64,000 nucleotides of DNA, from assembly GCA_965199675.1 (NCBI GenBank), contig CBDATI010000015.1, positions 98,217 to 162,216 on the forward strand. The letters are read 5' to 3'. Positions within the stretch are counted from its first letter, which is position 1. The number at the start of each line of letters is the position of its first letter. This document shows, one piece after another, positions 1,290 to 26,510 of this stretch. The DNA is from Vicinamibacterales bacterium (GTDB taxonomy: Bacteria; Acidobacteriota; Vicinamibacteria; Vicinamibacterales; UBA8438). The notes under the pieces are model-generated. The model was given only the letters and a program-made list of their open reading frames with translations, did no database searches and was not told the origin of the DNA. Position numbers and translations under genes: made by a program.

Positions 1290-1488
1290 CATCGAATGCG
1301 GCTCTCGGCCGCCGATGGTCGAACGTCGCGGTCCAGACCATCGACCATCGCGGTAGCGCCCGCGTCTCCGGTCACTCCTGCGCACGAATTCGGCCGACGG
1401 CGCATCATCGGGACGCCCCCCTCGTGGCCTCCGCTCGCGGGTCGCGTTTTCGCTTTCCCCCCAATTTACCCCCCAACTCACCTCCCAT
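1290..1488 (-). pseudogene. Remnant of the N-terminus of a P4-type (DUF4102 arm domain) tyrosine integrase
   Basis: Minus-strand pieces MGGELGGKLGGK / RPRGGRPDDAPSAEFVRR..GRYRDG / GLDRDVRPSAAESRIR* lie in shifting frames with a stop. They align to the first ~70 aa of the intact integrases (MGGKLDGNLVG..KPRGRHPENALSADFVRS..GRYCDGHGLYLDVQASGSRSWIQR). DNA around the start (ccat..tggtggaaaagcc) matches 45630-45655. Confidence 0.5.
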
Positions 1489-1862
1489 TAATGGTGGAAA
1501 AGCCGGCGCGGGGACAGACCCCTCCGCCGCCGGGTCCGCCATCGTGTTTTTGCCCGTATTCCGGGCGAAAACGCGGCTTTCGACGCCCGTCAGGACCGCC
1601 TGTACACGCCAAAACAGGGCGGACTGATCCTTCTCCCCGTTGCCGTGAGCGGCAGGCAACGATGCAACTGGTTGATGGCAGACATCTCGAAGGGGTCGTG
1701 GGTTCGGGCGCTACGCAGTTGACGCCCAGCTCCATGCACAACCAAGGAGGCCCGAAGCGTGACGCGGAGGGCGCAGTCGGCACCGGGGGGAGTCAGGGGG
1801 CGCGAATGGTCAGGTTCCCCCTGCGCTGGCGACAACGGACGGATTGACGAGGAGATTGCGAC

Positions 1863-3951
1863 ATGCGGACAGGAGTGATTTTCGCGAGAGGTCGTTGCAG
1901 AGCGCTGAAGTGGCTGGCGCTGTTCGGGGTGGTGTTCGTGCTGGGGGGCGGCTCGGGCGTCGCGCAGCCCAAGAACTACGAGATTGAGTTCGATGCTGAT
2001 CGTGTCGTCAGGGAAGGTGCGAGTACTACGATAACTGTGATGTTGTCGGCCGAAGTACCCGCAAACACGGGAAGCGACACAGTAATAGACGTCATGGTGG
2101 GTGTACGCCAACCAGGTGCCAGTGCATTCGCGGGCGCTGGTTGGGCCGCAGGCACCACGCCGGCCGAACTCAACAACGTGGATGTGACCTTCGCCGACGT
2201 AGCTACGTCGTTTACAATGAAGATTCCGAAGAACACGACCGGTAACTCTGAGCGGCTTGGGAGCAAGAAATCCATCTTGTTGCAGACAAACACGGACACC
2301 GATGCCGAGGACGAAGCTCTCGTCTTCTATGCTACAGCTGGTTCTGACTCGTCGCAGACGCCGCATGCCAGGAGCGCCCAACAGCTCATCATCGACGATG
2401 AGCAAACCCAGAGTTATGTGCTGTCCCTGCCAAAAGTCGACGGCAAGGCTCAAGACCCGACGGAAGCCGGTGACCCAGTCAAGGTGAAGCTGGAGGCCAA
2501 ACCGAAGCACGTCCAGGGCTATGCAGACCTGTACTTTCATATCGACGACAGCAAGTACGAAATCGATGCTGAAAGCCTTGGGCGCAAAAGGATAGGTAGA
2601 AGGGGCGACGACAGGGCCCCGGAGGATGGCGTGCCGGATAGTGGCCCTTTCAACGATCACACAGTCGAAATAACGGTTCCGAATAGCGACGGGGATCGGG
2701 AGTCGGACACTATCACCCTGAGTGTGCACTCGGGTCAGGCCGGAAACTCCATGCTGGAGGATTCGCTGCAGATCACAGTCAAGGACAAGGACCCGCTGCC
2801 CATGGTCACGGCGATGGTGGTGGACGACAAGGGCGAGGCCCTCGATCCGCAGCCCATGTCGGTGATGGAGGGCGAGACGGTCATGGTGAAGGTGATGCCC
2901 GTCGACAAGGACGGCAAGGTCATGAAGGCGATGGAGGACCTGTCGGTCATGCTGGCGCCGTCCTCGTCGAGCACGGCCGACGGCATGGACTACCGCATCT
3001 ACCAGGCCATCTCCGTTCCCGAAGGCATGAACTCCAGCGCGGCCGTTTCGCTGGAGCTGCTCGACAACGACGATGTGGGCGCCGAGATGCTCGTGCTCGA
3101 CGCCACCGTGTCGGGCGAAGCTGCCATCGGTTCCGGGACCGAGATGAGCGAGGCCGTGTTGTCGTTGGAGGTCAAGGACGAGACGACCCCGCTGGTCTGG
3201 GTGAAGGACGATGCCTACGACGCCATCATGATGGCCCTCGGCGACGACCCGCTGAACCCAGGCGACTCGGCCGAGATCATGACCGACGAACCTGTTCGGC
3301 CATCTGCCCATGGTGGACGTTTCGTACGGCGCCCGGGTGGAAGGCGGGGCGGTCAGCGCGTCCGCGAGCGGCGAGATGGTGATGCTGATGGCCGAAGCGG
3401 CCGGAAGCGACACCAAGGTCACGGTCATCGCCACCGCATCCATGGGCGATTCCCTGATGACGCACCAGGATCGTGCGAACGTTGCGGAACTCACGTTCCC
3501 GGTCATGGTCGAGCTCGCAGATCTCATGGTCGAGCTCATGGGCCCCGAAGACAAGAACCTCGTCGAGGGGATGTCCTACGAGATCTCGGCGATGGCGAAC
3601 CGCCCGGTCGAGATGGACACCATGGTCGAGTTGGTCCAGACCGACGGCACGGCCTCGCCGTCTGACTACACGGTCGAGCCCATCACCATCATGGCCGGCG
3701 ACAAGATGGGCATGACCACGCTGACGGTGGAACCCGACGCGATGATGGAGAACGACGGCAACATGGCGGAGATGCTGACCCTCGAAGGGCGGTTCGTCGA
3801 CGATATCAGCGGCGACACCATGCCCACCTACCCGATGAGCCTCAGCTTCTACCTGTGGGATGCCGCGGTTCCGGCCCTGCCGGTCATCGCGCAGCTCCTG
3901 CTGGCGGCGTTCCTCGCGGTCGGCGGCTACCGGCGCTACCGGCGGCGGTAG
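1863..3951 (+). pseudogene. Secreted Met-rich repeat surface protein, paralog A (Calx-beta/Ig-like repeats, C-terminal VPALP-TM-RRYRRR tail); +1 frameshift near 3281-3291
   Basis: ORF 1863..3665 is protein-like only up to ...DSAEIMTDE. ORF 3310..3951 in the next frame continues the homology. The uninterrupted paralog B (52056..) reads GEMIEIMGSALFNAAPNVTLSYSV, against AEIM / NLFGHLPMVDVSYGA here. Signal peptide MRTGVIFARGRCRALKWLALFGVVFVLGGGSGVAQP. Repeats end in ..IIDDE, ..VKDKD, ..LDNDD. Confidence 0.7.
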
Positions 3952-3987
3952 CCCGTCGTTTCGGTCGGCGGCGGCGGCTCTCCCTTG

Positions 3988-4030
3988 CCCCCTCTTTCCC
4001 GGACGCTCCGGGGAAGAGGGGGTTCTCGTT
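3988..4030 (+). terminator. Long GC hairpin downstream of surface-protein gene A (terminator-like)
   Basis: ccccctctttcccgg (3988-4002) pairs with ccggggaagaggggg (4008-4022), a 15-bp stem with one G-U, followed by ttctcgttt. A homologous hairpin follows paralog B at 51984-52018. Confidence 0.5.
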
Positions 4031-4059
4031 TGGCGGGTCGAGCAGGCGCAGCAGGCGCC

Positions 4060-4300
4060 CGGACGGTGATCATCACGCGCTTTGACGATCGCGTCGACAG
4101 CCTCAAACACGCGGATCGACGACCTTGTCGCGCGCTTCGACGGTCGCTTCGACGACGTCAACGCCCGCATCAGCGAGCTCCGCGCCGATCTTGCCCGCAT
4201 CGATGACTGGCTCGGGGCCGTCGAGATCGCCGTGGGGAAAGTGGATCAGTGCCTGCTGACCATCGACGCGTCGTGCTGCCCGGCGCCGGGGCTGACGCAC
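4060..4300 (+). pseudogene. Degenerate copy of the small coiled-coil gene found intact at 51528..51827
   Basis: Pieces in three frames read ..ITRFDDRVDSL / NTRIDDLVARFDGRFDDVNARISELRADLARIDDWLGAVEIAVGKVDQCLLTID / RRVVLPGAGA. They match NARIDDLRSELNARMDRIE...RNVEIAFAKVDQRLLTIERVVLPGAEQ. No N-terminal TM segment is recoverable. Confidence 0.4.
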
Positions 4301-4560
4301 GCCCGCAGGATTTCGGCGACTTGCCCGAACTCGGCCCCCCGGCCCACCCCGCCCTCAGCGCCCGCGCTGCTCGGTTCGGAGCTCGCCTCGACCCGCTTCT
4401 CGTCGCCCGGCGGCGGGAAACACTTGGCGCACGAGTACCGGTCGAACGGCCGCTTGTGAAGCCGGGGCGGGCGGTGCAACCGAAGCACGCCCTGCCTCGT
4501 CCATGGGGAGGCTGACGAAAGCCGTGCGGGTGCCGAGAAGCGGCCTCGTTCCTCAGGCGC

Positions 4561-5457
4561 CTACGGATCGAGGCCGAGGAGCCGGGCCGGGTTGTCGCGG
4601 ATCATCAGGTCGATGTCGGCGTCGCTGACGCCCTCGGCGCGCAGGCCGTCCATGAGGGCGTTCAGACCGTCGGGGTGCAGCGGGTTCCCGGCCTGCCCGA
4701 GATCGGACGACAGGAGGAAGTGGCGGGCGCCGTAGGTGCGGATGGCGTCGGCGTAGTCGGCGTATGAGAACTGGCCGTTCAGGACCGCCAGCCACACGAG
4801 CTCGATGATGACGTCGTGCTCGGCCATCGCCGCGAGCTGGTCGGCGGTCGGCGACTGGCCGAGCCCGTGGGTGACGAGAATCTGCTCGACGCCGCGGGCG
4901 CGCGCCTCGGGAATCAGGGCCAGCACCTCCGCGGGCGACGAGTGCCCCATCGCGAGCACGAGGTCGTGCTCGGCGATGAGGTCGAAGATCTCGCCCAGGG
5001 CCGGGTCCATGACGCCGCCGCGCATGACCGGCACGAACTCGCCGGGGTCGCCCGCGCGGGTCATCCAGAACTCGGCGTCGAACGTCGGCAGCCAGACCAC
5101 CTTGCCCCGCCCGCCGGAGAACGCCACCAGTTGCCGCACCGCCTCGGCGTTGAGACCGCCGACGGAGTGGTTGAGGGCGACGCCGCCGAAGATCTCGATG
5201 CCGGGCACCTCCTGCATGGCCAGCCACGCGCGGTCGGCGGTCATCGTGAAGTGGTTCTTGAAGACGAGCCCGCGCATGCCGGCTCGCTTCGCGATGCGCG
5301 CGATCTCGAGGTCGCCGACCGAGCGGGGCCGCGAGTCGGGCCCCGAGTGCACGTGGAAGTCGATGACCCCGGCCAGGCCGGTGGTCTGTCCCGCCGCCGG
5401 CTGAACCAGGACGACGCCCATCAGTGCCGCCGCCCAGGCGGCCGTCCACCGTCTCAT
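4561..5457 (-). CDS. Exported metal-dependent hydrolase (amidohydrolase-type TIM barrel)
   Basis: Signal peptide MRRWTAAWAAALMGVVLVQPAAGQ. HxH metal motif in VIDFHVHSGPD. Uninterrupted 298-aa ORF. Confidence 0.6.
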   Translation of the reverse strand: MRRWTAAWAAALMGVVLVQPAAGQTTGLAGVIDFHVHSGPDSRPRSVGDLEIARIAKRAGMRGLVFKNHFTMTADRAWLAMQEVPGIEIFGGVALNHSVGGLNAEAVRQLVAFSGGRGKVVWLPTFDAEFWMTRAGDPGEFVPVMRGGVMDPALGEIFDLIAEHDLVLAMGHSSPAEVLALIPEARARGVEQILVTHGLGQSPTADQLAAMAEHDVIIELVWLAVLNGQFSYADYADAIRTYGARHFLLSSDLGQAGNPLHPDGLNALMDGLRAEGVSDADIDLMIRDNPARLLGLDP

Positions 5458-11779: not shown

Positions 11780-11941
11780 GCGCAAGGAGGACAGCGCTGC
11801 CCCGCGTCGGCGGCAACGACCCGAGAATCAGGGCGTGGGAGTCTGCGCCGCAGAACACGGAGTTGGAGAGCGGTGCTTCACCCAGGTCGCGTTGATGCCG
11901 GTGGGGTCTACGAGAAGACCCTGGCCGGGGGCTGCCGGTAC

Positions 11942-13918
11942 ATGTGGCGGTTCGGCTCGAGGCTGCTGCTGGCGGCGGCGTGCTGCGGCGGTTCCGCTGT
12001 CGCCCTCGCCCAGACGGGCACGCCCGGCGTGTCTCCGTTGATCACGGCGGTGCGCAACGGCGACGTGGACGAGCTGCGCGCCCACCTCGCCGGGCCGGTC
12101 GACGTGAACGCACGGCAGCCGGACGGCGCGACCGCCCTGCACTGGGCGGCGCATCACGAGGACATGGCCGCGGCCGACCTGCTGATCGGGGCCGGCGCTG
12201 ACGTCGACGCGGCCAACGACCTCGGGATGACCCCGCTGCTCATGGCCTGCCGCCGCGGCCACGGCGCCCTCGTCGAGCGGCTGCTCCACGCCGGCGCGGC
12301 GGTCGATGCGGTGCTCCCCTCTGGAGAGACCGCCCTGATGGCGGCGGCCCGCGCGGGCAGCCTCGAGGCGGTGAGGGGCCTGCTGACGCGGGGGGCGCCG
12401 GTGAATGCGGTCGAGGCGACGCGCGGCCAGACCGCCCTGATGTGGGCGGCCGCGAACCGGCGGCCGAGGGTGGTGCGGGCGCTGTTGGCCGCCGGCGCCG
12501 ACGTCGGCCCCGGACCGCGACCCGGCGGCGCGTGTACAACATGGGCGGCAGCCGATCGGCTGGATCGGCGTCGCAGGGCATCGCCCTCGAAGAGGTGGCC
12601 GAGGGCGGCAGCACGGCGCTGCTGTTCGCGGCGCGTTCGGGCGACGTCGAGTCGGCCCGTCTGCTGCTCGCGGCCGGCGCCGACCCCGACGACACCGCCG
12701 CCGACGGCAACACCGCCCTCGTGATTGCCGCGCACAGCGGTCACGGCTCCTGGCCGCGCTGCTGCTCGATGCGGGGGCCGACCCCGACGCCGCTCCCCTC
12801 GGTTACACCGCACTGCATGCGGCGGTGCTGCGGGGCACGCTGCGCGACCGCGGCGTTCCGAACGACGATCCGGGCGCCGGCCTGCCCCTCGTGCGCGCGC
12901 TGGCTCGCGGCCGGGGCCGACCCCGACCCGCGCCTCGCTCGAGGCACGCCGGTGCGGCGCTGGAGCCACGATTTCGCGTTCATGGACCGTTGGGTCGGCG
13001 CGACCCCATTCTGGCTGGCCGCACGGTTTCTCGAGATCGGGATGATGCAGGTCCTCGCCGACGCCGGGGCGGACCCGCACGCCGCGAGCCGCGACGGCGC
13101 CACGCCGCTCATGGCCGCGGCCGGGCTGGGTTACAACCGGGGCGGCGGGAGCGCGTTCATCCGCGACCGCCGTGACTTCTCGTCGTACAACCCGGTGGAG
13201 TCGGCCGCGCTCGGGTCCACCATCCCCGCGGCCGAGGAACAGCGGACCCTCGATGCGGTCGCGGCCGTCCTCGCCGCCGGCGCCCGTGTCAACGCAACCA
13301 ACGACGCCGGCGACACCGCCCTCCACGCCGCCGCCTCGCACGGCATGAACCGGGTCATCCGGTTGTTGGCCGACCGCGGCGCCGACCTCCGGGCCAGGAA
13401 CCGCCGCGGACAGGCGCCGGTCGACCTCGCCGTCTACGCCGACGGCATCGCCGGCGACCGGTACTCCCGCACCGCCACGGCAGCACTTCTGCGCACCCTG
13501 GCGGAGGCCCCCTCCGTTCGCCGTCCGGAGGCGGCGCCGCCCGGCCTCGCAGAAGCGGAGGCGACGGCCCCTCCGGCCGCTCCCGGCCGACGCCCCGTCG
13601 CGCGGGGGCTGACCAACCCCGTGGCGCACACGGCGGCGGCGGTGGCGGCGGGGGCCGCCGCCTATGCGACGCACTGCGCCGCGTGCCACGGCGCCAACGG
13701 CCGCGGCGACGGCGTCCTTGCCGCCGCGACCGCCGCCTACGGTCCGCGCCCTTCCGACCTCGCCGACCCGACGTGGCGCCACGGTGGCAGCGACGGCGAG
13801 ATCTTCACCGTCATCCGCGACGGCATCGGCCCACGACTTCGCCATGGACGCCTTCGGCGACCGGCTCTCCGAGACGGACATCTGGCGCGTGGTGGTCTTT
13901 CTCAGGAGCCTGAGGTAG
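11942..13918 (+). pseudogene. Ankyrin-repeat protein with C-terminal cytochrome c domain; at least 4 frameshifts
   Basis: Signal peptide MWRFGSRLLLAAACCGGSAVALAQ. ANK repeats (GATALHWAAHHEDMAAADLLIGAGADVDA.., GMTPLLMACRRGH.., GETALMAAARAGS..). Sense continues through frame changes near 12525, 12745, 12900 and 13840. C-terminus reads YATHCAACHGANGRGDG...EIFTVIRDGIGP / DFAMDAFGDRLSETDIWRVVVFLRSLR*. Confidence 0.6.
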
Positions 13919-13981
13919 AGGTCCCGGCGGGTGGGGGCGGCGACGGGTTCGCCTCTTGACTCTCGACGTCGTCGTGAGCTA

Positions 13982-13999: not shown

Positions 14000-14015
14000 A
14001 TTGGAGAAAAAGGTA

Positions 14016-14261
14016 ATGCAGGCGACGATGACCACCAAGGGACAGGTGACTCTGCCCAAACCGATTCGCGACAAGCTCCACCTCAGACCGGGTGACAAGA
14101 TCGACTTCGTGCTCGACGGCGACGTCGTGCGAGTCACGCCGGTCACCGCGTCGGTCACTGCGCTGAAGGGCATGGTGCCGAGACCGGCGGCGCCGGTCAG
14201 CCTCGACGAGATGGATGCGGCGATTGCCCGGGCGGCCGCCCGCCGTTCGTCCAGCCGATGA
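14016..14261 (+). CDS. vapB: AbrB/SpoVT-type antitoxin (VapB-like)
   Basis: MQATMTTKGQVTLPKPIRDKLHLRPGDKIDFVLDGDVVRVTPV is a looped-hinge-helix signature. GGAG lies 9 nt upstream of ATG 14016. The stop overlaps the start of the PIN gene. Confidence 0.75.
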   Translation: MQATMTTKGQVTLPKPIRDKLHLRPGDKIDFVLDGDVVRVTPVTASVTALKGMVPRPAAPVSLDEMDAAIARAAARRSSSR

Positions 14262-14657
14262 TCGGTCTCGACACCAACGTCCTCGTGCGCTACATCGTGC
14301 AAGACGATCCTGACCAGGCGGCGGCCGCGGCGCGCCTCATCGAGGGCCGTTGCACGGCGCGTTCGACCGGCTACGTCAACGTGCTCGTGCTGGTCGAGCT
14401 GGTGTGGGTCCTGACGACCGCCTATCGGCAGGGCAGGGCCGCGGTCGTTTCGGTGATTCGCCAGATACTGCGAACCGCCGAGCTCACGGTCGAGGATCGC
14501 GACACGGTTCTGGCGGGCCCTGCGCGAGTTCGAATCGGGCGCCGCCGACTTCGCCGACTGCCTGATTGCCCATCGCGACCACGCCCGCGGCTGTGCCTGC
14601 ACCTTTACCTTCGATCGGCGGGCGGCCCGCGGCAACCACTTCGCTCTCGTGACCTGA
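14258..14657 (+). pseudogene. vapC: PIN-domain toxin VapC with a 1-nt frameshift near 14513-14519
   Basis: MIGLDTNVLVRYIV.. is a PIN N-terminus. After ..EDRDTVLA the annotated frame becomes Arg/Pro nonsense. The next frame gives LREFESGAADFADCLIAHRDHARGCACTFTFDRRAARGNHFALVT*, a typical PIN C-terminus. Confidence 0.7.
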
Positions 14658-14713
14658 CCGCGTTCCGGTGGTTCCGGTAGCGCGCGGCGACGCCGGTACG
14701 ATCTGGCGGGCCC

Positions 14714-15776: not shown

Positions 15777-16631
15777 TCAGGGGCGGTTGGGCGGCGGGCC
15801 CGCCGCCCTCGTGCGGCGCGCCCGCCCCGACCGGAACAGGACGCCGGTTGCGACGGCGGCGCCGAGCGCCGGGACCAGCAGCACGAGGGCGCCCCACGCG
15901 AGCACCGGGGCGCCGGTGAGCGGGTCGTAATCGAAGCAGCGGAAGAGCACGTCGCCGGGCAGGGGATAGCTCGCGACGAACTGACCGCGTGCCTCGCGCA
16001 CCACCTCGCCGAGCCGCACCGCCGTCACCGACCCTCCCACGAGCAGCCTCGCCACCCGGCCGTCGCGGATGCCAACGAGGAGGGCGGGGTGGTCGAACTG
16101 CCGCCGATCCTCGTCCCATTCGAACCAGAAGCCGAGGGCTCGGGCAAGCCGCTCGACGTCGGTCGGGTCGGCCACCCCGAGCACCCAGCCCGGATGTCCG
16201 GTCACCCCGAGGTGATCGCCCGTGCGCTGCAGGTCGTGCGGCGTGTCGCGGGGGTCGAAGCTGATGACCACCCGCCGCACGTCGTCGGGCAGGTCGAGGG
16301 CCTCGTCTGCTCGTCGCAAGGCGCGCAGGTAGGGTGAGCAGATGCCGGCGCACCGGGTGAAGACCATCGTGAGGACGAGCGGCCCGTCCCCCCACAGCGC
16401 AGAGAGCTGCGTGGGCCCGGCAGGGGTGCGCACCGCGATGTCGGGCACCGGCCGGTTCAGATAGCGGGTCTCGTCGGGCGGGCGATCGGGGGCGGTCACG
16501 CCCACGCTCGACGGCGAGCGTGGGGGCGCGTCGTTCGCCGCCGCGACGGTCCCGGGGCCGCATCCGGCGAGGAGCGCGGCGAAGCAGGCCGCCCCGCGCC
16601 CGCCGGTCAGGCGCGCAGGGCGTGAACGCAC
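15777..16631 (-). CDS. SCO1/SenC-like thioredoxin-fold copper chaperone (lipoprotein, C-terminal TM)
   Basis: GTG start gives VRSRPARLTGGRGAACFAALLAGCG (lipobox). CxxxC motif in MVFTRCAGICSPYL. It overlaps the 3' end of subunit I by ~25 nt. Confidence 0.65.
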   Translation of the reverse strand: MRSRPARLTGGRGAACFAALLAGCGPGTVAAANDAPPRSPSSVGVTAPDRPPDETRYLNRPVPDIAVRTPAGPTQLSALWGDGPLVLTMVFTRCAGICSPYLRALRRADEALDLPDDVRRVVISFDPRDTPHDLQRTGDHLGVTGHPGWVLGVADPTDVERLARALGFWFEWDEDRRQFDHPALLVGIRDGRVARLLVGGSVTAVRLGEVVREARGQFVASYPLPGDVLFRCFDYDPLTGAPVLAWGALVLLVPALGAAVATGVLFRSGRARRTRAAGPPPNRP

Positions 16632-18067
16632 CGTCGTCCCGTGTCCCACAGGTACAGTCCCAGGCCCCCGAACAGCACGAGAATGAAGACCAGCGAGAGG
16701 TTGGCGAAGAAGGGCCCGCTCGCCAGCTCCTCGGGATAGGCCGCGAACCGCCGGGGCACGGCATCGGCGCCGGCGAGGTAGAACGAGAGCATCAGGCCGT
16801 AGCCGCCCACGACGAGGTGCGCGGCCGTGACTCGCGAGCGCCGGAGGTTCTCCGTCTCCGCCGTCAGGCTCACCACGAGGTGATACACGCCCCCGAGAGT
16901 CATCAGAACCACGCCCATCAGGTAGTAGGTGTGGAAGTGCGCGGGCACCCACAGGGTGTTGTGGAAGGCCTGGTTGACGACGATCGTCGAATCGATGACG
17001 GCGGCGACGCCGCCGATCGCCCACCCCATGACCCCGAGGTACAGCAGGGTGGGGGCGAGGCTCCAGCGGATTGCCGACCGGTAGGTCAGCACCAGGGTGC
17101 TGAAGATGGTGACGACGGCGGCGGGCACCGAGACCAGGTAGGAGGAGAGCTGGCCCAGCACCTGCATCCAGCGCGGCTGCGCGAAGTCCATGTAGAGGTG
17201 GTGCAGGTACGCGAACATCACGAGGGCGAGAACCGTGTTCCAGGAGAGGACGACCAGGGTGTTGGTCTTCCACGGCCGCCCGGTGTACGCGGGCATTATC
17301 TCGTAGACGAGGGCCACGCCGAAGTACATCGTGATGTTCACGAGCATGTGCCCGAAGTAGAACGTCAGGTTCTTGATGAGCAGGGCGTCGTTGGCGGCCC
17401 CGCCGCCGAGCGCCTCCCAGCCGATGAGCGCGAGAATGACGACGGCGGCGACGAGGCCGGCGAGAACGCCGATGCAACTGACGGTGGCGATGATGACGAT
17501 CGGCGGCACCTCGGGTTCGCTGCGGCCCGACAAGTAGTGCCACCCGAGGGCTTCGCGCACCCCGTACCGCGCGGCGATCGCGCGCAGGACGTCGCCCGAC
17601 CAGAGCGTCCACGCCACGCCGAGCACGGCGAGGGCGGCGAAGAGGGAAGCGGTGGCCCAGCCCGGCCACGTCCCGCCGGAGAAGAAGGGCAGCGGATACA
17701 GGAAGTACCAGCCGACTCCCAGCCGGCCCACGAGCGTCGCCGCCACCAGCAGCACGACCCCGACCACCGTCATGCCGAGGGCGATGCGCGACACCGCAAG
17801 GCTGGGTCGTACGTACCGAGTCAGGAGGAAGCTCATGGCGGCGAGACCCGCCACGAACCAGACGCCGACCATGCCCAGCCCGTGCAGGGTCATGAAGGCG
17901 TAGAACCACTCGGGTGGGGTGGCGGCGAAGTACCCCGCCTGCAGCGTGCGCATGACCCCGCCGAGGAGGGCCAGGATGGGGAAGAGCACGAGCCCGACGA
18001 CCACCCAGACGAGGGTGAGGCGGGTCATCTGCGCCGTATAGCGGTCCGCGGCTGCTGCGTCGCTCAT
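16607..18067 (-). CDS. Heme-copper oxidase superfamily subunit I (short, 486 aa; Tyr-to-Asn at the cross-link position)
   Basis: All six His ligands can be aligned: TLHG, FYFGHMLVN, AYLHHLYMD, WVPAHFHTYY. GHMLVN aligns to GHPEVY/GHPIVY of A/B-type oxidases. Its ATG overlaps the stop of subunit II (TGATG). Confidence 0.85.
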   Translation of the reverse strand: MSDAAAADRYTAQMTRLTLVWVVVGLVLFPILALLGGVMRTLQAGYFAATPPEWFYAFMTLHGLGMVGVWFVAGLAAMSFLLTRYVRPSLAVSRIALGMTVVGVVLLVAATLVGRLGVGWYFLYPLPFFSGGTWPGWATASLFAALAVLGVAWTLWSGDVLRAIAARYGVREALGWHYLSGRSEPEVPPIVIIATVSCIGVLAGLVAAVVILALIGWEALGGGAANDALLIKNLTFYFGHMLVNITMYFGVALVYEIMPAYTGRPWKTNTLVVLSWNTVLALVMFAYLHHLYMDFAQPRWMQVLGQLSSYLVSVPAAVVTIFSTLVLTYRSAIRWSLAPTLLYLGVMGWAIGGVAAVIDSTIVVNQAFHNTLWVPAHFHTYYLMGVVLMTLGGVYHLVVSLTAETENLRRSRVTAAHLVVGGYGLMLSFYLAGADAVPRRFAAYPEELASGPFFANLSLVFILVLFGGLGLYLWDTGRRCVHALRA

Positions 18068-18669
18068 CACTCGGCCTCCCCGAGGACTTCGATGACCCCT
18101 CGCATGGCGTGGTGCCCGAGCCCGCAGTACTCGAGACACAGCACGTGGTAGGTACCCGGTTCGTCGAAGCGCACGCGCAGCCGGTTGACGTACCCGGGCA
18201 TGGCCTGCGTCTGCGCCAGCACCCGGCCGTCGGGCGTGTAGACGCCGAATGCGTGGTTGACGTCGAGGGTGCGCACGCGGAACTCGACCACGGCGCCCGC
18301 CCGGACGTCGACCGTCGGCGAGAAGTCGCGGTCCCAGGTCTCGATGGACTCGGGGCCCGCATGATCGGTGGGCGAGAAGGCGTACTGCCGACTCACCACG
18401 TTGACGACCTGACCGGGTACGGCCGCCTCCACCGGGTACGGCAACCGCGGTAGGGTCAGGATCAGGAAGATCCCGAGAACGACCATCAGCGACAGGAAGA
18501 ACACGCCGCGCAGTCGGTTGGTGCGGTCGTGGTCGACGGGGCCCTCGCGGGCGGTGGACCGGGCCACGACGACGAACACGGCCGCGATGATCGCGGCCGA
18601 CGACAGGAACAGCAACAGCGGGATGTTGGTCGTCACCGGATCCCTCCCCAAGGTGTATCGTAATGTCAA
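18067..18669 (-). CDS. Heme-copper oxidase subunit II, cupredoxin with CuA site
   Basis: Two TM helices followed by VNHAFGV...CLEYCGLGHHAM (H..CxExCGxxHxxM CuA signature). Confidence 0.8.
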   Translation of the reverse strand: MTLRYTLGRDPVTTNIPLLLFLSSAAIIAAVFVVVARSTAREGPVDHDRTNRLRGVFFLSLMVVLGIFLILTLPRLPYPVEAAVPGQVVNVVSRQYAFSPTDHAGPESIETWDRDFSPTVDVRAGAVVEFRVRTLDVNHAFGVYTPDGRVLAQTQAMPGYVNRLRVRFDEPGTYHVLCLEYCGLGHHAMRGVIEVLGEAE

Positions 18670-18853
18670 TGCGCGGGGGCATCAACGGCATCGGCCGCAG
18701 GGCCGGGGCCGCCCGGGCCGCACATGCGGTATGAGATAGAATGTTCGCGCCCCGGTTTGCGGGCCTCGTCTCCGCTGGGAGGCGGGCGGTCGGGACTGGA
18801 TGCGTCGGCGGTCGCCGTCCACGGCCGGCCGCGGACCGTTCTGGAGGGAGATC

Positions 18854-19843
18854 ATGGATAGCCGGTGGCTTGCCTGTTCGTTGACCCTGGCCGCGCTCGT
18901 GACGTTGACGCCGGCCGTCGCCGTCGCCCAGACCGGGACCTCGGACGCTCCCCGCACCGCTTGGGGCGCTCCGGACCTGCAGGGCGTCTGGGACTTTCGC
19001 AGCCTGACCCCAATGGAGCGCCCGGAGGAGCTGGCCGGGGATGAGAGCTTCTCGCCCGAACAGGCGGCGGAGTTCGCGGCCGAGACCATTCGCCGGCGGA
19101 GCCGCGACGCCGACACGTCGGACCGCGTCGTGCCCTACAACGACTTCTGGTTCGACGAGGGCACGTCGGTGACGACGGAGCGCACGTCGCTCATCGTCGA
19201 TCCGCCCAACGGCCGCATCCCGCCCCTGACCGACGAGGCCCGGCAGCGGCAGACGGCGCTGTCGGAGGCGCGCAGCGGCGTGTCCAGTCACGAGCCGACG
19301 CCCGGCGGCTTCGTCGAGGACCTCGGCCCCGGCGGGCTGCAGGTGCGGTGCATCCTCGGCTTCAACTCGGGTCCCCCGATGGCCCCGAGCGCCTACAACA
19401 ACAACGTGCAGGTGTTCCAGACCGAGGACACCGTGGTCCTCTTCGCCGAGATGAACCACGAGGCGCGCGTGGTGCCGCTCGACGGGCGCGCCCATCTCAC
19501 TGACTCGGTCCGGCAGTGGACCGGCGACTCGCGGGGCCGCTGGGACGGCGACACCCTCGTCGTCGAGACGAGGAACTTCCTGCGCGAGACGAACTTCCAG
19601 CGGGGCGCGACCACCCCCAACCTCACCCTGACCGAGCGGCTCACCCGCGTGGACGCCGACACCCTGCGCTACGAGGTGACGGTGGACGACCCGACGGTCT
19701 GGACGAGGCCGTGGACGTACTCGGTGCCGATGCAGCGGAACCCGCAGCCGGTCTACGAGTACGCCTGCCACGAGGGCAACTACGGCCTCTACAACATCCT
19801 GGCCGGCGCCGCCCTCGCCGGGGCCGACGACGGGTCGCAGTAG
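18854..19843 (+). CDS. Secreted conserved hypothetical protein (C-terminal YEYACHEGNY motif)
   Basis: GGAGGGA SD lies before ATG 18854. Signal peptide MDSRWLACSLTLAALVTLTPAVAVAQ. No domain I can name. Confidence 0.5.
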   Translation: MDSRWLACSLTLAALVTLTPAVAVAQTGTSDAPRTAWGAPDLQGVWDFRSLTPMERPEELAGDESFSPEQAAEFAAETIRRRSRDADTSDRVVPYNDFWFDEGTSVTTERTSLIVDPPNGRIPPLTDEARQRQTALSEARSGVSSHEPTPGGFVEDLGPGGLQVRCILGFNSGPPMAPSAYNNNVQVFQTEDTVVLFAEMNHEARVVPLDGRAHLTDSVRQWTGDSRGRWDGDTLVVETRNFLRETNFQRGATTPNLTLTERLTRVDADTLRYEVTVDDPTVWTRPWTYSVPMQRNPQPVYEYACHEGNYGLYNILAGAALAGADDGSQ

Positions 19844-19883: not shown

Positions 19884-20036
19884 GTTGGGCGCCCGGCGGA
19901 ACCCGTCAGGCGGTGATTGGCGGGCTGGGGAGACGCCGGCGCGGTACGAGACATCGGGTTCGGCCCGTGATGCCGGCAGAGAGCGCCGGCCGGTTTGGTT
20001 GGCGCCCGGCGGAGCCGTCAGGCGACGATTGGCGGG
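19884..20036. repeat. Two ~41-bp direct copies of a GGCGCCCGGCGG-type intergenic repeat
   Basis: gttgggcgcccggcggaacccgtcaggcggtgattggcgggc (19884-19925) and ggttggcgcccggcggagccgtcaggcgacgattggcgggc (19996-20036). Related units occur at 35186-35297 and inside the 34.5-kb array. Confidence 0.7.
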
Positions 20037-20052
20037 CGAGGAGGAGCGTGTG

Positions 20053-21240
20053 ATGACGAGTGGAACGAGCCCCCGGGAGACGACCCGCAGGGAGATGATG
20101 AAGCAGAGTCTGGCGTTGGCGGGGGCGGGAGTGCTCGGGGTGCGCGGCCTGACCCTGCCGGCCCTCGCCCAGGACGAGACGCCGGCGCCGTTCACCGACG
20201 TACCGGAGAATTTCGGCCAGCCGAATCCCGCTTCCGCCATTCGAATCTACGACATCCGGAACATCGACGGCCCCTACACGCCGGCCGACTCGTTCTACAC
20301 CATCCAGCACTTCGGCAAACCCGTCATCGACGCGGACGGGTTCAGCCTCGGCGTGTCCGGTCTCGTGGACCGGCCGGCGGCGCTGAGCCTCGACGATCTG
20401 CGGGGCATGGACAGCATCGAGATCGACGCCGGCTACGAGTGCTCGGGCAACTCGCGCCGGCTCATCCAGGGGTTGGCGAGCAACGGCCGGTGGACGGGGG
20501 TGCCGCTGCGCGCGGTGCTCGATCTCGTCGGGGTGCAGCCCGCCGCCCGCGAGGTCGTCTTCTTCGGCGCCGACAAGGGGCCCGAGACCGTCGACTTCCG
20601 GGGGACCCCGCACGAGGTCGATCAGCCGTTCGCCCGCAGCCTGTCGCTGGCCGACGGGATGACGACCGGCCCGCTGCTCGCCTATGCCCTGAACGGGGCG
20701 CCCCTGACGGTCGAGCAGGGAGCGCCGCTGCGGCTGCTGGTTCCGGGCTGGTACGGCGTCACCAACGTGAAGTGGCTCTCCCACATCCGGTTGCAGTCCG
20801 AGCGGTTCCTCGGCAAGTGGCAGGCGCGGTGGTACCGCACCCTGTGGTCGGAGGAGATCGGCGGCGAGACGGTGTGGCACGAGACCGAGGTGTCGCGGCT
20901 GCGGGTCAAGTCGGTCATCGCGCGGGTGACCCGGGTCGGCGACCGCCACGAGGTGCTCGGCTTCGTGCTCCACGACGGCACGCCGCTGCGCGGAGTGCAG
21001 GTGAAGGTGGACGACGGCGCGTGGCAGGCGGCCACGCTCGACCCCTCGACGGGGGGCCAGTACTCGTGGAAGCTGTTCCGTTTCGCCTGGAACGGCGCCA
21101 CGCCGGGCGAGCACACCCTGGTGTCGCGGGTCACCGACGTCGACGGCAACGTGCAGCCGACGAGCGAGGAGCTGTCGGCCATCAAGCAGACCGGCCTCGA
21201 GGACAATTCGCAGTTCCCGAGGACGGTGATGATCGCCTGA
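20053..21240 (+). CDS. Tat-exported molybdopterin oxidoreductase of the sulfite oxidase family
   Basis: TRREMMKQSLALAGAG is a Tat signal. GYECSGNSRR carries the Mo-ligand Cys. LLVPGWYGVTNVKWL, plus a C-terminal Ig-like dimerisation domain. Confidence 0.75.
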   Translation: MTSGTSPRETTRREMMKQSLALAGAGVLGVRGLTLPALAQDETPAPFTDVPENFGQPNPASAIRIYDIRNIDGPYTPADSFYTIQHFGKPVIDADGFSLGVSGLVDRPAALSLDDLRGMDSIEIDAGYECSGNSRRLIQGLASNGRWTGVPLRAVLDLVGVQPAAREVVFFGADKGPETVDFRGTPHEVDQPFARSLSLADGMTTGPLLAYALNGAPLTVEQGAPLRLLVPGWYGVTNVKWLSHIRLQSERFLGKWQARWYRTLWSEEIGGETVWHETEVSRLRVKSVIARVTRVGDRHEVLGFVLHDGTPLRGVQVKVDDGAWQAATLDPSTGGQYSWKLFRFAWNGATPGEHTLVSRVTDVDGNVQPTSEELSAIKQTGLEDNSQFPRTVMIA

Positions 21241-21468
21241 GCCGTCGCGGCCTGCCGCCGGCGCGACCAGCGGCAGGATTGGGGGGCGTTTGCCGGTGCG
21301 ACACTGCTGCGGCGCCGGACCCGTTCCGGGTCCCGGTTCCCTCCGGCGGGTGCCCCCGGGCTCGTCCCGCTCATCCCGGGCCGTCCGGCGCTATACTGGG
21401 AGGGCTCCCCGATCGAAGACTGGGGGCTCCCCGATCTGAAGCGTGAAGAGGTTCGAGAGGTGACGGCC

Positions 21469-23877
21469 ATGCTGAAGCGAGGCATCGGCGCGGCGCTGGT
21501 GGTGGGAGTGGCCCTCGTGGCGTGGCCGTCGGCCGCGGCGGGCGGTCAGGCCGGGGCCGGGCCGCCGTCGCGCGCGCTCTTCGACCGCTACTGCGTCACC
21601 TGCCACAACCCGCGCCTGCTGACCGGCGGGCTCGACCTCGGCGAGGTGGATCCCGCACAGACCGCGGCCCATGCGCCGGTCCTCGAGCGGGTCGTCCACA
21701 AGCTGCGCACGGGGCAGATGCCCCCCGAGGGGCGTCCGCGCCCCGACCGGGCCGAGATCGACGCGTTCGTGACCCGCCTCGAGCACGCCCTCGATGAGGT
21801 GGCGGCGGCCGACCCGAACCCGGGCCGCGTGGCGTCGCGGCGGCTGAACCGCGTCGAGTACGTCAACGTCATCGAGGACCTGCTGGGCCTCGAGGTCAAC
21901 GGCGAAGAGCTGCTGCCGTCGGACATGGCGGGGTTCGGCTTCGACAACAATGCCGAGGTGCTGTCGATCACGCCGGGGCTGATGGCCCGCTACATCGCGG
22001 CCGCCACCAAGATCAGCCGGGCCGCGGTGGGCAGCCCCGACATCCGCCCCGTCATGCAGCTCTACGAGGTGGGCTACGAGCAGCGCGATGTGCGGGCCGG
22101 CGAGGACCTGCCCTTCGCGACCCACGGCGGGCTCGCGGTGCGCCACCACTTCCCCCTGGACGGCGAGTACCGCTTCGCCGTCCGGCTCAAGCGCAACGAG
22201 ACCATCGAGACCATCGACGGCATCGCCGAGAACGAGCACCAGATCGAGATTCGCATCGACCACGCCCTCGTCGAGCAGTTCGCCATCGGGGGCCGGTACC
22301 CCGGCCCCGACCCCGGCTCGCTCATCGCGGTGCCCGAGGACGATGTCGAGGGGCAGCGGCTGCACGAGTACCGGATGACCGCCGACCGTGCGCTCGAGGT
22401 GCGGGCTCGGGTCGAGGCGGGCACCCGGCTGCTGTCGGTCGCATTCACCGACTCGGCGCCGTCCCCGCATCCGCCGGGGCTGCTGCCGGGCATCCACCAG
22501 GTCTTCGTCTCCGGGCCGTTCGACGGCGAAGTGCCCGGCGACACCCCCAGCCGCCGGCGAATCTTCACGTGCTACCCGGAGGGCGCCGCCGACGAGGAGC
22601 CTTGCGCGCGCGCCATCATCGGCCAGCTCGCGCGCCGCGCGTACCGCCGGCCCGTCGACTCCGACGACGTCGAGCCGCTGCTGGGCCTCTACCGCGAGGG
22701 CCGGAGCGAGCGCGACTTCGAAGCAGGGATAGAGCGGGCCCTCGAGGGCCTGCTGTCGATGCCGCAGTTCCTGATGCGGGTCGAGCGGCAGCCCGTCGAC
22801 ACCCCGGGCGGCGCCGTGTATCGGCTGAGCGACCTCGAGCTGGCGACCCGGCTGTCGTTCTTCCTGTGGAAGAGCATCCCCGACGACGAGCTGCTCGACC
22901 TGGCGGAGCGGGACGTGCTGAGCGAGCCCGACACCCTGGCCGCGCAGGTGCGCCGGATGCTCGCCGACCGGCGGGCCGCGCGGTTCATGGACGACTTCGC
23001 GGGCCAGTGGCTGCAGGTGCGGAACATCTTCTCGCAGGACCCCGACGGGGCGCTCTTCGCCGGGTTCGACGACTCGCTGCGCAAGGCGATGGTGCGCGAG
23101 ACGCAGTTGTTCTTCCAGAGCCAGGTCCGGGCGGACCGTCCCCTGCAGGACCTGCTGCGGGCCGACTACACGTTCCTCAACGAGCAGCTCGCGCGCCACT
23201 ACGGCGTGGACGACCTCTACGGCAGCCACTTCCGTCGGCACGAGTGGCGGGACGACCGCCGGCACGGGCTGCTCGGGCACGGGAGCCTGCTGACCGTCAC
23301 CTCCTACGCGAACCGGACCTCGGTGGTGCTGCGGGGCCTGTGGGTGCTCGAGACGCTGCTCGGCGCGCCGCCGCCGCCTCCGCCGCCCAACGTGCCGCCC
23401 CTGCCCGAGAGCGACCGCGCCCGGCCGACATCGCTGCGCGAGCGGATGGAGCAGCACCGCAGCAGCCCCGTCTGCTCGAGTTGCCACGCCCGGATGGACC
23501 CGCTGGGCTTCGCGATGGAGCACTTCGACGCGGTCGGACGCTGGCGCGAGCGCGACGGCGGGGCCGAGATCAACGCCACCATCGAGTGGAACGGCGCCAC
23601 CATCGACAGCCCCCGCGCGTTCCGCGAGGCGCTGCTCGCGTCGGGGCACGAGTTCGTGCACACCGTCGTGGAGAAGCTGATGATCTATGCCCTGGGCCGC
23701 GGCCTCGACTACTACGACGCCCCGACCCTGCGGCGGATCGTCCTGGATCTGGAGCACGACGACTACCGCTGGTCGTCGCTCGTGCTCGGCGTCGTCACGA
23801 GCGACCAGTTCCTGATGCGGCGCGCCCCCGAGACCGGGATGCTGGCCGACGTTCGGCTCGAGGCTCTCGATCCGTGA
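21469..23877 (+). CDS. DUF1592/DUF1595/DUF1588/DUF1585-family protein with N-terminal CxxCH (copy 2, intact)
   Basis: LFDRYCVTCHNPRL, FFLWKSIPDDELLDLA, DDFAGQWLQV, SYANRTSVVLRGLWVLETLLG, SSPVCSSCHARMDPLGFAMEHFD. GAGAGG SD lies before ATG 21469 (GTG 21460 is also possible). Confidence 0.8.
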   Translation: MLKRGIGAALVVGVALVAWPSAAAGGQAGAGPPSRALFDRYCVTCHNPRLLTGGLDLGEVDPAQTAAHAPVLERVVHKLRTGQMPPEGRPRPDRAEIDAFVTRLEHALDEVAAADPNPGRVASRRLNRVEYVNVIEDLLGLEVNGEELLPSDMAGFGFDNNAEVLSITPGLMARYIAAATKISRAAVGSPDIRPVMQLYEVGYEQRDVRAGEDLPFATHGGLAVRHHFPLDGEYRFAVRLKRNETIETIDGIAENEHQIEIRIDHALVEQFAIGGRYPGPDPGSLIAVPEDDVEGQRLHEYRMTADRALEVRARVEAGTRLLSVAFTDSAPSPHPPGLLPGIHQVFVSGPFDGEVPGDTPSRRRIFTCYPEGAADEEPCARAIIGQLARRAYRRPVDSDDVEPLLGLYREGRSERDFEAGIERALEGLLSMPQFLMRVERQPVDTPGGAVYRLSDLELATRLSFFLWKSIPDDELLDLAERDVLSEPDTLAAQVRRMLADRRAARFMDDFAGQWLQVRNIFSQDPDGALFAGFDDSLRKAMVRETQLFFQSQVRADRPLQDLLRADYTFLNEQLARHYGVDDLYGSHFRRHEWRDDRRHGLLGHGSLLTVTSYANRTSVVLRGLWVLETLLGAPPPPPPPNVPPLPESDRARPTSLRERMEQHRSSPVCSSCHARMDPLGFAMEHFDAVGRWRERDGGAEINATIEWNGATIDSPRAFREALLASGHEFVHTVVEKLMIYALGRGLDYYDAPTLRRIVLDLEHDDYRWSSLVLGVVTSDQFLMRRAPETGMLADVRLEALDP

Positions 23878-23896
23878 ACCGGGCGGCTCGACGGCG

Positions 23897-24331
23897 GTGG
23901 GCCGGAGCACGAGCGGAGGGCGTGTGCGAGAGACAGTTCGGGACTTCACCCTGGCGGTAGCGGCGTTGGCCTCGCTGTTCGCGGCGTTTCAGTCATGGAC
24001 CACGGCCCGGGACTTGACGGAAGTGCGTGAGGACTTGGCGGAAGTGCGTGAGGACTTGGCGAGGGCGCGCGAGGATCTGAGCGGCGAGGTGGCGAGGGCG
24101 CGCGAGGATCTGGGCGGCGAGGTGGCGAGGGCGCGCGAGGATCTGAGCGCCGACCTGGCGGCGGTGCGCGAAGATCTGAGCGGCGACCTGGCGGCGGTGC
24201 GCGAGGATCTGAGCGGCGACCTGGCGGCGGTGCGCGAGGACTTGGCGGAAGTGCGCGGGCAGTTGCAGACGACCACCGAGGCGATGCTCGCCCACGTCAA
24301 CGCGCCGGGGTTGCACGGCGGCGGACACTGA
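23897..24331 (+). CDS. Small membrane-anchored protein made of tandem 7-/11-residue repeats
   Basis: N-terminal TM FTLAVAALASLFAAFQSW. Then EDLAEVR x2, EDL(S/G)GEVARAR x2, EDLS(A/G)DLAAVR x3 (33-bp DNA units, 24012-24262). Start ambiguous (GTG 23897 or 23924). Confidence 0.55.
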   Translation: MGRSTSGGRVRETVRDFTLAVAALASLFAAFQSWTTARDLTEVREDLAEVREDLARAREDLSGEVARAREDLGGEVARAREDLSADLAAVREDLSGDLAAVREDLSGDLAAVREDLAEVRGQLQTTTEAMLAHVNAPGLHGGGH

Positions 24332-24437
24332 AACGGTCGGTCGGCGGCCTCAGGCTCGCGAGGCTGCCTCGCCCCGGCCGTGCGGCGTCGAGGGCTTGGC
24401 ACGGGCAAATCAACTCGGTATTCCTGGAGAGAGTGGC

Positions 24438-25787
24438 ATGTTCATCACCCGCACGCATCTGCCCCGCCGTACCGTGCTGCGCGGCCTCGGCGCCACGGTG
24501 GCGCTCCCGCTGCTCGACGCCATGGTGCCGGCCGCGACCGCGCAGAGCCGCACCGCCGCCGCGCCCATCAAGCGCTTCGGCGTGTTCTACGTCCCCAACG
24601 GCATGTCCATGCCCTACTGGTATCCGCGGCACGAGCCGGGCAAGCTGGAGACCCTGCCGCCCACTTTGCGCTCGCTCGAGCCGTTCCGCGACCGCGTGAC
24701 GATCTGCGGCGGCCTCGACGACGAGCCGGCCAACCTCGTCAAGGGCGGCGGCGACCACGCCCGGTCCGCCGGCACCTTCCTGACCTGCGTGCCCTACAAG
24801 ATGACGAACGGGGCGGACGTCTCGAACGCGGTGTCGGTGGACCAGATCGCGGCCCGTGAGCTGCAGAACGAGACCCAGCTCGCGTCGCTCGAGCTCGGCA
24901 TCGAGTCGAACGCCATGGTCGGCAACTGTGACGGCGGCGCGAGCTGCGCCTACACCAACACCATCGCCTGGCGGACGCCGACCACCCCACTGCCCATCGA
25001 GAACGACCCGCGGGCGGTGTTCGAGCGTCTGTTCGGCACCAGCGGCAGCACCGATCCCGAGGCGCGGCTGGCCCGCATGCGGCGCGACCGGAGCATCCTC
25101 GATCTCGTCAACGACGAGTTGCAGGGGTTGGGAAGGGTTCTCGGGCCGGGAGACCAGGCCAGGCTCGACGAGTACGTCGAGGCGGTCCGCGACATCGAGC
25201 GGCGGATCACGATGGCCGAGGAGCAGAGCGCCCGCGAGCTGCCGGTGGTCGACCAGCCCGTCGGGGTGCCGAGCGATTACGCCGAGCACGCCAAGCTGAT
25301 GATGGACCTGCTGGCTCTCGCCTACCAGACGGACCTCACCCGCATCAGCACGTTCATGCTCGCGCGCGAGGTGAGCGGCCGCGCCTATCCCGAGATCGGC
25401 GTGCCCGACTCGCACCACCCGCTGTCGCATCACCAGGACGAACCGGCCAAGCTGAACCGGCTGCACCTCATCAACGAGTACCACTTCCAGCAGTTCGCGT
25501 ACCTCGTGGCCAAGCTCGATGCCATCCCCGAGGGCGACGGCTCGATGCTCGATTCGACGCTGTTCCTCTACGGCACCGGCATCAGCGACAGCAACACGCA
25601 CTTCCACGACGATCTGCCCGTGGCCCTTGTCGGGGGGCAGAACGCCGGCATCACCGGCGGCCGCTACGTCCGCTATCCCCAGGACACGCCGCTCGCCAAC
25701 CTGCACGTCACGATTCTCGAGTGGCTGGGCACGCCGGTGGAGGCGTTCGGCGACAGCACGGGTCAGCTCGGCCGGTTGACCGCGTAG
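24438..25787 (+). CDS. DUF1552-family Tat-exported protein (copy 2, intact)
   Basis: MFITRTHLPRRTVLRGLGATVALPLLDAMVP. Collinear with copy 1, including HHPLSHH and the PLANLHVTILEWLG end. Confidence 0.8.
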   Translation: MFITRTHLPRRTVLRGLGATVALPLLDAMVPAATAQSRTAAAPIKRFGVFYVPNGMSMPYWYPRHEPGKLETLPPTLRSLEPFRDRVTICGGLDDEPANLVKGGGDHARSAGTFLTCVPYKMTNGADVSNAVSVDQIAARELQNETQLASLELGIESNAMVGNCDGGASCAYTNTIAWRTPTTPLPIENDPRAVFERLFGTSGSTDPEARLARMRRDRSILDLVNDELQGLGRVLGPGDQARLDEYVEAVRDIERRITMAEEQSARELPVVDQPVGVPSDYAEHAKLMMDLLALAYQTDLTRISTFMLAREVSGRAYPEIGVPDSHHPLSHHQDEPAKLNRLHLINEYHFQQFAYLVAKLDAIPEGDGSMLDSTLFLYGTGISDSNTHFHDDLPVALVGGQNAGITGGRYVRYPQDTPLANLHVTILEWLGTPVEAFGDSTGQLGRLTA

Positions 25788-26042: not shown

Positions 26043-26510
26043 ATGCGACGGCGCGTTCGCAGGAGCCTCTTCGGGCCCGCGTTGACCCTCGTCGCCCTGC
26101 TGCTGCCGGCGTCGGCGCAGGCGCAGCAGGGGCCCTACCCCATCTTCACCGAGGCGCATCTCGACGCCACCATGACGACGCTCGGCCCGAACGTGGCCGG
26201 CGTGCGGGCCGCCCTCGCCGCGGGCGACCACTCGACGGCCAAGGAGCGGGCCATCCGTTCGCGCGAGCAGCTCGCCACCACCATCACGTTCTGGCGCGAC
26301 CGCGCGCGAGACGACGCGGTGGGCTGGCTGCGGACGGCGCTGAACCGGCTCGACGCCCTCGACACCGCCCTCTCCGCCGAGTCGGTTGACGCGGCCGCGG
26401 CCCTCGCGATCGGAAACGAGATCGCCGCCGCCTGCAACGCCTGCCACGCGGTGTACCGCGAGCCGGACGGAGACGGGGCCTACCGCGTGAAGACGAGCGC
26501 CCTGCCCTGA
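26043..26510 (+). CDS. Class II cytochrome c (cytochrome c'/c556-like four-helix bundle)
   Basis: Signal peptide MRRRVRRSLFGPALTLVALLLPASAQA. Helical ~130-aa body with a single C-terminal CNACH heme motif. Confidence 0.55.
   Translation: MRRRVRRSLFGPALTLVALLLPASAQAQQGPYPIFTEAHLDATMTTLGPNVAGVRAALAAGDHSTAKERAIRSREQLATTITFWRDRARDDAVGWLRTALNRLDALDTALSAESVDAAAALAIGNEIAAACNACHAVYREPDGDGAYRVKTSALP

Follow-up and report, generated by a model that had tools for sequence, protein, structure and literature searches.

Which reaction does a heme-copper enzyme catalyze once the cross-linked tyrosine of its active site is gone, and where would its substrate come from in a bacterium that has no denitrification pathway? 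A three-gene cluster in the genome of a Vicinamibacterales bacterium (Acidobacteriota; 5.32 Mb, 98.45% complete) raises this question. It lies on the minus strand at 15777-18669 of a 64,000-nucleotide stretch (the window; positions 98217-162216 of contig C15), whose G+C content is ~70% and whose proteins have their closest relatives under Vicinamibacterales (Acidobacteriota) names. The tightly packed genes encode a CuA-bearing subunit II, a heme-copper catalytic subunit I, and a SCO1/SenC-like copper chaperone (Table 1). The original prediction, made by eye, saw a nitric oxide reductase (NOR)-like family without the active-site Tyr in a cluster resembling norS–norY–senC, and left the family open. 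The tree and the diagnostic Asn settle it as sNOR: subunit I is very likely a member of that family, and by analogy with a characterized relative the enzyme would probably reduce nitric oxide (NO) to nitrous oxide (N2O), handling NO of external origin within an sNOR-type operon.

Subunit I matches PF00115 (COX1) with an E-value of 5.6e-50 (171 bits) and falls far below the cut-offs of the curated oxidase equivalogs—82 bits against 671 for CtaD, for example; none of the NCBIfam models scanned reaches its cut-off for this protein. Its motif FGHMLVN (residues 238-244) aligns with FGHPEVY and FGHPIVY, so that Asn244 falls on the cross-linked Tyr of the oxygen reductases (bovine Tyr244, ba3 Tyr237). 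This substitution had been called from the motif, and two alignments concur on it: a pairwise one with bovine COX1 and a profile one with Thermus thermophilus ba3, in which a 29-sequence family profile was aligned. The 486-residue protein also keeps all of its His ligands, as had been stated: H62, H240, H289, H290, H377, and H379 align with ba3 H72, H233, H282, H283, H384, and H386, and both low-spin heme ligands (H62, H379) are His. These six residues and Asn244 are invariant in 29 diverse relatives that are 31-62% identical to the query.

A Tyr relocated to helix VII, as in the C-family oxidases, is ruled out: the corresponding position, six residues before the His-His pair, is Val283, where Ruegeria CcoN has Tyr. 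At Tyr287, two residues ahead of His-His, other family members carry Phe, Met, or Val, and the alignment combined with modeled helix positions gives no other invariant Tyr on helix VI or VII near His240. The proton-channel region is a modified version of that in ba3: Tyr255 corresponds to Tyr248, while Val251 and Ala316 replace Tyr244 and Ser309. At its cytoplasmic end, helix VI carries Tyr255 and Glu256. Almost all members of the sub-branch to which the window protein belongs have Glu256, as does Ruegeria sNOR, and some Asn-type relatives lack it. Polar residues are conserved along the K-channel region in the family alignments.

Among solved structures, T. thermophilus ba3 is the best profile match (133.6 bits), with the heme and CuB ligands and the K-channel Tyr pair (ba3 Tyr248, Tyr255 here) in common; the differences are Tyr237 to Asn244, Tyr244 to Val251, Ser309 to Ala316, and 13 helices in ba3 against 12 here. 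The AlphaFold2 model of subunit I (predicted local distance difference test [pLDDT] 81.8, predicted template modeling score [pTM] 0.85) has 12 long helices, and Foldseek aligns it with all solved heme-copper catalytic subunits at template modeling (TM) scores of 0.70-0.81.

The sNOR family is already published (Stein 2007; Hemp and Gennis 2008; Murali 2024), and Silicibacter is listed among its holders. The residue at the Tyr position is diagnostic across these families: N in sNOR and bNOR (CuANOR), Q in eNOR, D in gNOR, and E in cNOR/qNOR. Searching a library of 1.84 billion cluster representatives, we recovered 658 relatives of subunit I at E <= 0.001; the full-length ones, from 583 down to ~200 bits, are all GHxxxN, and no Tyr-bearing GHP(V/I)VY protein scores higher than 163 bits. 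In an IQ-TREE phylogeny of 54 rows (LG+C20+F+G4; the rows exclude Nitrosomonas NorY and Bacillus azotoformans bNOR), the 40 Asn-type rows all group in a single clade (support 100/100). This clade includes the window protein, Ruegeria pomeroyi sNOR, and a Thermomicrobium roseum protein, and is separate from nine Tyr-bearing non-A proteins and four A-type oxidases, the genome's own among them; placement within the bona fide O2 reductases is thereby ruled out.

The named anchor came from tblastn against plasmids: a subunit I encoded on the Ruegeria (Silicibacter) pomeroyi DSS-3 megaplasmid matches the query at 39% identity with 86% coverage, against <=30% identity with 45% coverage for other plasmid oxidases. 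The window's sub-branch as a whole is ~36-41% identical to the Ruegeria and Thermomicrobium proteins, and the motif VYE(I/L)xPxYTGRPWK(T/S)N after the CuB His is common to the window and Ruegeria subunits. In the published description, sNOR lacks ba3 Ser309 and has a Glu at a different location; Ala316 fits that account, and Glu256 may be the Glu in question. Haloarchaeal plasmid matches considered as NOR-like references turned out to be A-type (GHPEVY), and the Tyr-bearing sister group in the tree cannot be assigned to the B-family, its members scoring higher against A-type structures. The database names of L042, L043, P0068, P0070, and P0115 are misleading.

Other families are excluded by diagnostic features. 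eNOR (from Rhodothermus marinus), cNOR, and qNOR are NO reductases of this superfamily that also lack the Tyr, but eNOR has Gln and cNOR/qNOR a metal-binding Glu where the window enzyme has Asn244, and cNOR/qNOR also lack CuA. In gNOR an Asp replaces a B-site His and the CuA ligands are lost, whereas here three B-site His and CuA are intact; nNOR combines a cNOR-like Glu with a His/Met low-spin heme, against Asn244 and His/His here. The O2-reducing A, B, and C oxidases are excluded as a family by Asn244 on helix VI and Val283 on helix VII, which leave no cross-linking Tyr. A functional parallel is bNOR (qCuANOR) of B. azotoformans: as in the window enzyme, Asn occupies the active site, there is a CuA subunit, and the proton path is predicted to open to the cytoplasm. 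According to Murali et al., it is the sole Asn-type enzyme with demonstrated electrogenic NO reduction; it is reported from Bacillales alone and described as a convergent lineage of its own in which the B-type K channel, including Ser309, is retained. Compared by this published description, the window enzyme differs in carrying Ala316 at the Ser309 position, and holders of its sub-branch are Acidobacteriota, Planctomycetota, and others, not Bacillales.

Subunit II matches PF00116 (27.5 bits) and TIGR02866 (CoxB; 67.6 bits), and a hydropathy scan gives two N-terminal helices. Its CuA ligand pattern, H...C-x-E-x-C-x3-H-x2-M, is intact, with the His, Cys, Cys, His, and Met aligning with ba3 and Aquifex; its best solved relatives are B-family proteins (Aquifex 7deg_B, 57.7 bits; Thermus ba3 CuA, 46 bits). 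The chaperone matches PF02630 (SCO1-SenC) at 29 bits, and its CxxxC (CAGIC) and His181 align with Thermus Sco (PDB 2k6v). Its signal peptide carries a lipobox (LLAGC), and a C-terminal extension specific to the sub-branch forms a YPLPG...FRCFDYDP hairpin followed by a membrane helix. The AlphaFold2 model (pLDDT 83.3) places the Sco fold at 50-215, the hairpin at 233-244, and the helix at 246-276. Because of the lipobox-bearing signal peptide and the modeled C-terminal membrane helix, the chaperone would be tethered to the membrane at both ends. Thirteen relatives spread over six phyla share the conserved extension (YPLPG...FRCFxYxP...WG), which the Ruegeria SCO lacks.

The three genes lie where they had been placed, on the minus strand in the order CuA subunit II, subunit I, SCO1/SenC, and Pfam and NCBIfam matches agree with these identities. 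Within the predicted span the location holds and the outer boundary shifts: the longest open reading frame (ORF) of subunit II starts at TTG 18669, with an alternative at GTG 18636. Because GGGGAGGGA lies close upstream of GTG 18636 and the start context GTGACGACC is kept in four relatives, GTG 18636 is most likely the true start. The subunit II stop and the subunit I ATG overlap (TGATG), and the chaperone's GTG start overlaps the end of subunit I by 25 nucleotides. The three overlapping frames are a self-contained, translationally coupled operon. When the region upstream of the subunit II start is aligned with that of four close relatives, no conserved regulatory motif emerges, and gene calls with Pfam in the window show no regulator gene adjacent to the operon.

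Table 1. Positions in the window of the three operon genes and the adjoining intergenic stretch
Feature	Position	Strand	Description
norS-like subunit II	18067..18636	-	189 aa from GTG 18636; PF00116, TIGR02866; two N-terminal membrane helices, CuA cupredoxin domain
norY-like catalytic subunit I	16607..18067	-	486 aa, 12 membrane helices; PF00115; six His ligands, Asn244
SCO1/SenC-like copper chaperone	15777..16631	-	284 aa; PF02630; GTG start 16631
Non-coding stretch between subunit II and divergent gene at 18800	18637..18799		Presumed promoter region

The same module recurs widely. Of 29 related loci, 27 hold the complete three-gene set, at 50-88% identity and from at least six phyla, and the senC/SCO gene directly after subunit I is counted in 26 of the 29; holders include Acidobacteriota, Acidimicrobiia, Planctomycetota, Verrucomicrobiota, Eremiobacterota, and Bacteroidota. 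Planctomycetota excepted, the 29 loci show no other conserved neighbor. In seven Planctomycetota genomes (L026-L034, ~1-5300) the module sits directly behind an A-type oxidase operon that encodes CtaD, a subunit III-like protein, small membrane proteins, and its own second SCO gene. Closer to home the enzyme is rare: in a 61-genome sample of the family it occurs in 3, and in none of the five other genomes of the same genus. The other two family copies (G042:C1:938729-940186 and G032:C2:842930-844385) carry an internal TGA or are split by a frameshift, as is also seen in L012; the cause may be genuine decay or errors in long-read assemblies. The module looks patchily distributed and horizontally acquired. 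Two Acidimicrobiia MAGs (metagenome-assembled genomes) binned to Actinomycetota, L017 and L024, carry copies 62-79% identical to the acidobacterial protein and nested inside the acidobacterial group of the tree, which indicates recent inter-phylum transfer or mis-binning.

Against the published systems, the operon is recognizable and pared down. Like sNOR (NorS–NorY–SenC–Orf1) of ammonia oxidizers and R. pomeroyi DSS-3, it combines the Asn, the six His, a CuA subunit, and a downstream SCO gene with the loss of Ser309. The Ruegeria cluster runs Rrf2, subunit II, subunit I, SCO, orf1 (a hypothetical membrane protein), formate/nitrite channel, cytochrome c; the window operon has none of orf1, the Rrf2 regulator, the channel, and the cytochrome c gene, whereas its chaperone has the extra conserved hairpin and C-terminal membrane helix. 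Ruegeria orf1 has no detectable homologue in the window's own genome, and no orf1-like neighbor recurs in the related loci. Unlike the classic sNOR hosts, this one has no nitrite reductase.

How such an enzyme might work follows from what the missing residue does. The cross-linked Tyr supplies the fourth electron for O2 reduction, and reduction of NO to N2O needs only two electrons. Loss of the Tyr therefore argues against four-electron O2 reduction; we infer NO reduction because bNOR, whose NO reductase activity has been demonstrated, has this Asn site too and because the reaction has this two-electron need. Electrons would pass from a periplasmic cytochrome c through CuA and the low-spin heme to the binuclear center, where 2 NO would be converted to N2O and water in a two-electron reaction for which the Tyr is dispensable. 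Protons would probably arrive from the cytoplasm by a modified K-type path—Tyr255, Glu256, and Thr320/Ser323 up to Asn244—and, if that path is right, turnover would be electrogenic, in line with what is reported for the Asn-type bNOR. The chaperone, anchored at both ends, would load copper into CuA. Since the genome has no NO-forming nitrite reductase, we propose that the NO comes from outside sources: NO released by neighboring organisms or by chemistry would be removed or respired, rather than NO from the cell's own denitrification.

Several observations weigh against this assignment. The genome has no nirK (best match 24 bits), nirS, nosZ of either clade, or narG; its nirS-like matches are partial propellers at 28-31 bits and its NrfA-like match is partial at 26 bits, all far below family level. 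Because nirK, nirS, and nosZ are lacking, the window enzyme is not part of a denitrification pathway in this genome. The genome also lacks cbb3 and cytochrome bd, which leaves room for a low-oxygen role, and its one other heme-copper oxidase is A-type. Only 3 of the 29 genomes with the sub-branch have nirK or nirS (two full nirK, one nirS), and clade II nosZ is full in five of the same genomes and fragmentary in two more, all of these counts being lower bounds owing to MAG incompleteness; so few nitrite reductases among the holders is odd for a denitrification enzyme. At the operon itself the classic partners—orf1, an Rrf2/NsrR-like regulator, and the nitrite channel—are absent. Descent from the B-family is put in question by profile scores of 133.6 bits for ba3 and 128.6 bits for an A-type quinol oxidase, and by Foldseek TM-scores of the subunit I model of 0.80 to A-type against 0.72 to ba3; Foldseek was set aside as a family discriminator, since it fails to separate heme-copper families, and a clear B-family affinity is confined to subunit II. 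In the published work, moreover, no sNOR has been purified or assayed for NO reductase activity. Elsewhere in the genome, a cytochrome P460-family domain (66.7 bits) lies at G000:C59:107593-108009, inside a 498-residue open frame; this protein possibly handles hydroxylamine or NO.

The main competing explanation is a terminal oxidase for low oxygen that scavenges O2, perhaps with NO tolerance, as proposed for the sNOR of Nitrosomonas europaea; we judge it unlikely, though a serious contender. There, O2 limitation raised norSY–senC transcript levels 2.7- to 10.8-fold, and its authors suggested that the enzyme acts as a high-affinity oxidase. The idea stays alive here because the genome has neither a nitrite reductase nor another low-oxygen oxidase, the A-type enzyme being its only other heme-copper oxidase; most sub-branch holders likewise have no nitrite reductase, and the Planctomycetota modules sit directly behind an A-type oxidase operon. 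What speaks against it is the chemistry of the active site: the His-Tyr cofactor is used by every heme-copper enzyme known to reduce O2, whereas the helix VI Asn is invariant in the 29 relatives, the helix VII alternative is a Val, and the helix positions offer no other invariant Tyr near His240. Reduction of some other small oxidant (peroxide, or another nitrogen oxide), or a mainly protective sink without energy conservation, seems to us improbable. Function in the family is indeed assigned by analogy, the gene context shows no link to nitrogen metabolism, and the P460-family gene suggests that some hydroxylamine or NO chemistry may occur in the cell; yet the active site is the same as in bNOR, a demonstrated electrogenic NO reductase according to Murali et al., and polar residues are conserved along the K-channel region.

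Two further readings concern the status of the protein rather than its substrate. It is very unlikely to be a bNOR or to represent a distinct Asn-type family that has no name yet: bNOR does have the same Asn, the tree rows exclude bNOR and Nitrosomonas NorY, and the sub-branch is only ~36-41% identical to the Ruegeria and Thermomicrobium proteins, but every Asn-type row clusters with Ruegeria sNOR at 100/100, and bNOR is reported from Bacillales alone and keeps the Ser309 that is Ala316 here. We find it scarcely credible that the operon is what remains of a transferred module, now decaying and functionless. The frames in the window are all intact, overlapping, and coupled, every ligand is kept, and many residues are invariant across phyla; the rarity of the module in the family (3 of 61 genomes) and the internal TGA or frameshift in the two other copies would fit decay, but those defects may be long-read assembly errors.

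NO reduction by an sNOR-type enzyme thus remains the reading we prefer. The operon is a further example of an already published family and adds little by itself; the sub-branch is where broader interest may lie. Mostly a bare three-gene module with a doubly anchored FRCF-x-Y-x-P SCO, it might constitute a separate, non-denitrification type in aerobic non-denitrifiers, a suggestion that we make tentatively and regard as doubtful. Such a type may be an energy-conserving respiratory sink for NO made by others or a Tyr-independent low-oxygen oxidase. A well-populated sub-branch, mostly in genomes free of nitrite reductase, bears on the choice among denitrification enzyme, NO scavenger, and oxidase as the role of sNOR, and some of the N2O production that standard annotation misses may be due to sNOR-type enzymes. 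The bare module, the extended SCO, and the mostly non-denitrifying hosts may be of specialist interest and leave the overall picture unchanged.

The surroundings of the operon in the window are of a different character. The next gene beyond the chaperone is a convergent cyanophycinase. On the other side, on the plus strand, an exported 347-residue protein without a family match (18800-19843) is followed by a SorA/SoxC-like (sulfite-oxidase-like) molybdopterin oxidoreductase with a twin-arginine translocation (Tat)-type signal (20035-21240), which scores far below the equivalog cut-offs. None of the window neighbors—the cyanophycinase, the sulfite-oxidase-like enzyme, the 347-residue protein, a DUF1592/DUF1552 pair, and an ankyrin–cytochrome c fusion—recurs in the related loci, apart from the partial exception of a 43%-identical homologue of the 347-residue protein ~5 kb from the module in L012. 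The sulfite-oxidase-like enzyme, the 347-residue protein, and the cyanophycinase were therefore rejected as parts of the system.

Farther out on the plus strand, a small exported helical protein ending in CNACH (26043-26510) was considered as a cytochrome c'-like NO binder and rejected, having no Pfam match to the class II cytochrome c family. The planctomycete-type pair at 21460-25787 comprises an 805-residue protein with DUF1592, DUF1588, DUF1585, DUF1587, and DUF1595 domains and a cytochrome c motif, and a DUF1552 (HXXSHH) protein with a Tat-like signal. At 11873-13959 (+), an ankyrin-repeat protein is fused to a C-terminal cytochrome c domain; the two overlapping ORFs there (11873-12724 and 12442-13959) lie in different frames and both encode ankyrin repeats, pointing to a frameshift or an error of assembly. 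Between this gene and the cyanophycinase, two small overlapping genes (14001-14680, +) resemble, by eye from their translations, a VapB (AbrB/SpoVT-type) antitoxin and a VapC PIN-domain toxin; the pair lies ~1.1 kb from the downstream end of the operon, with the cyanophycinase gene between.

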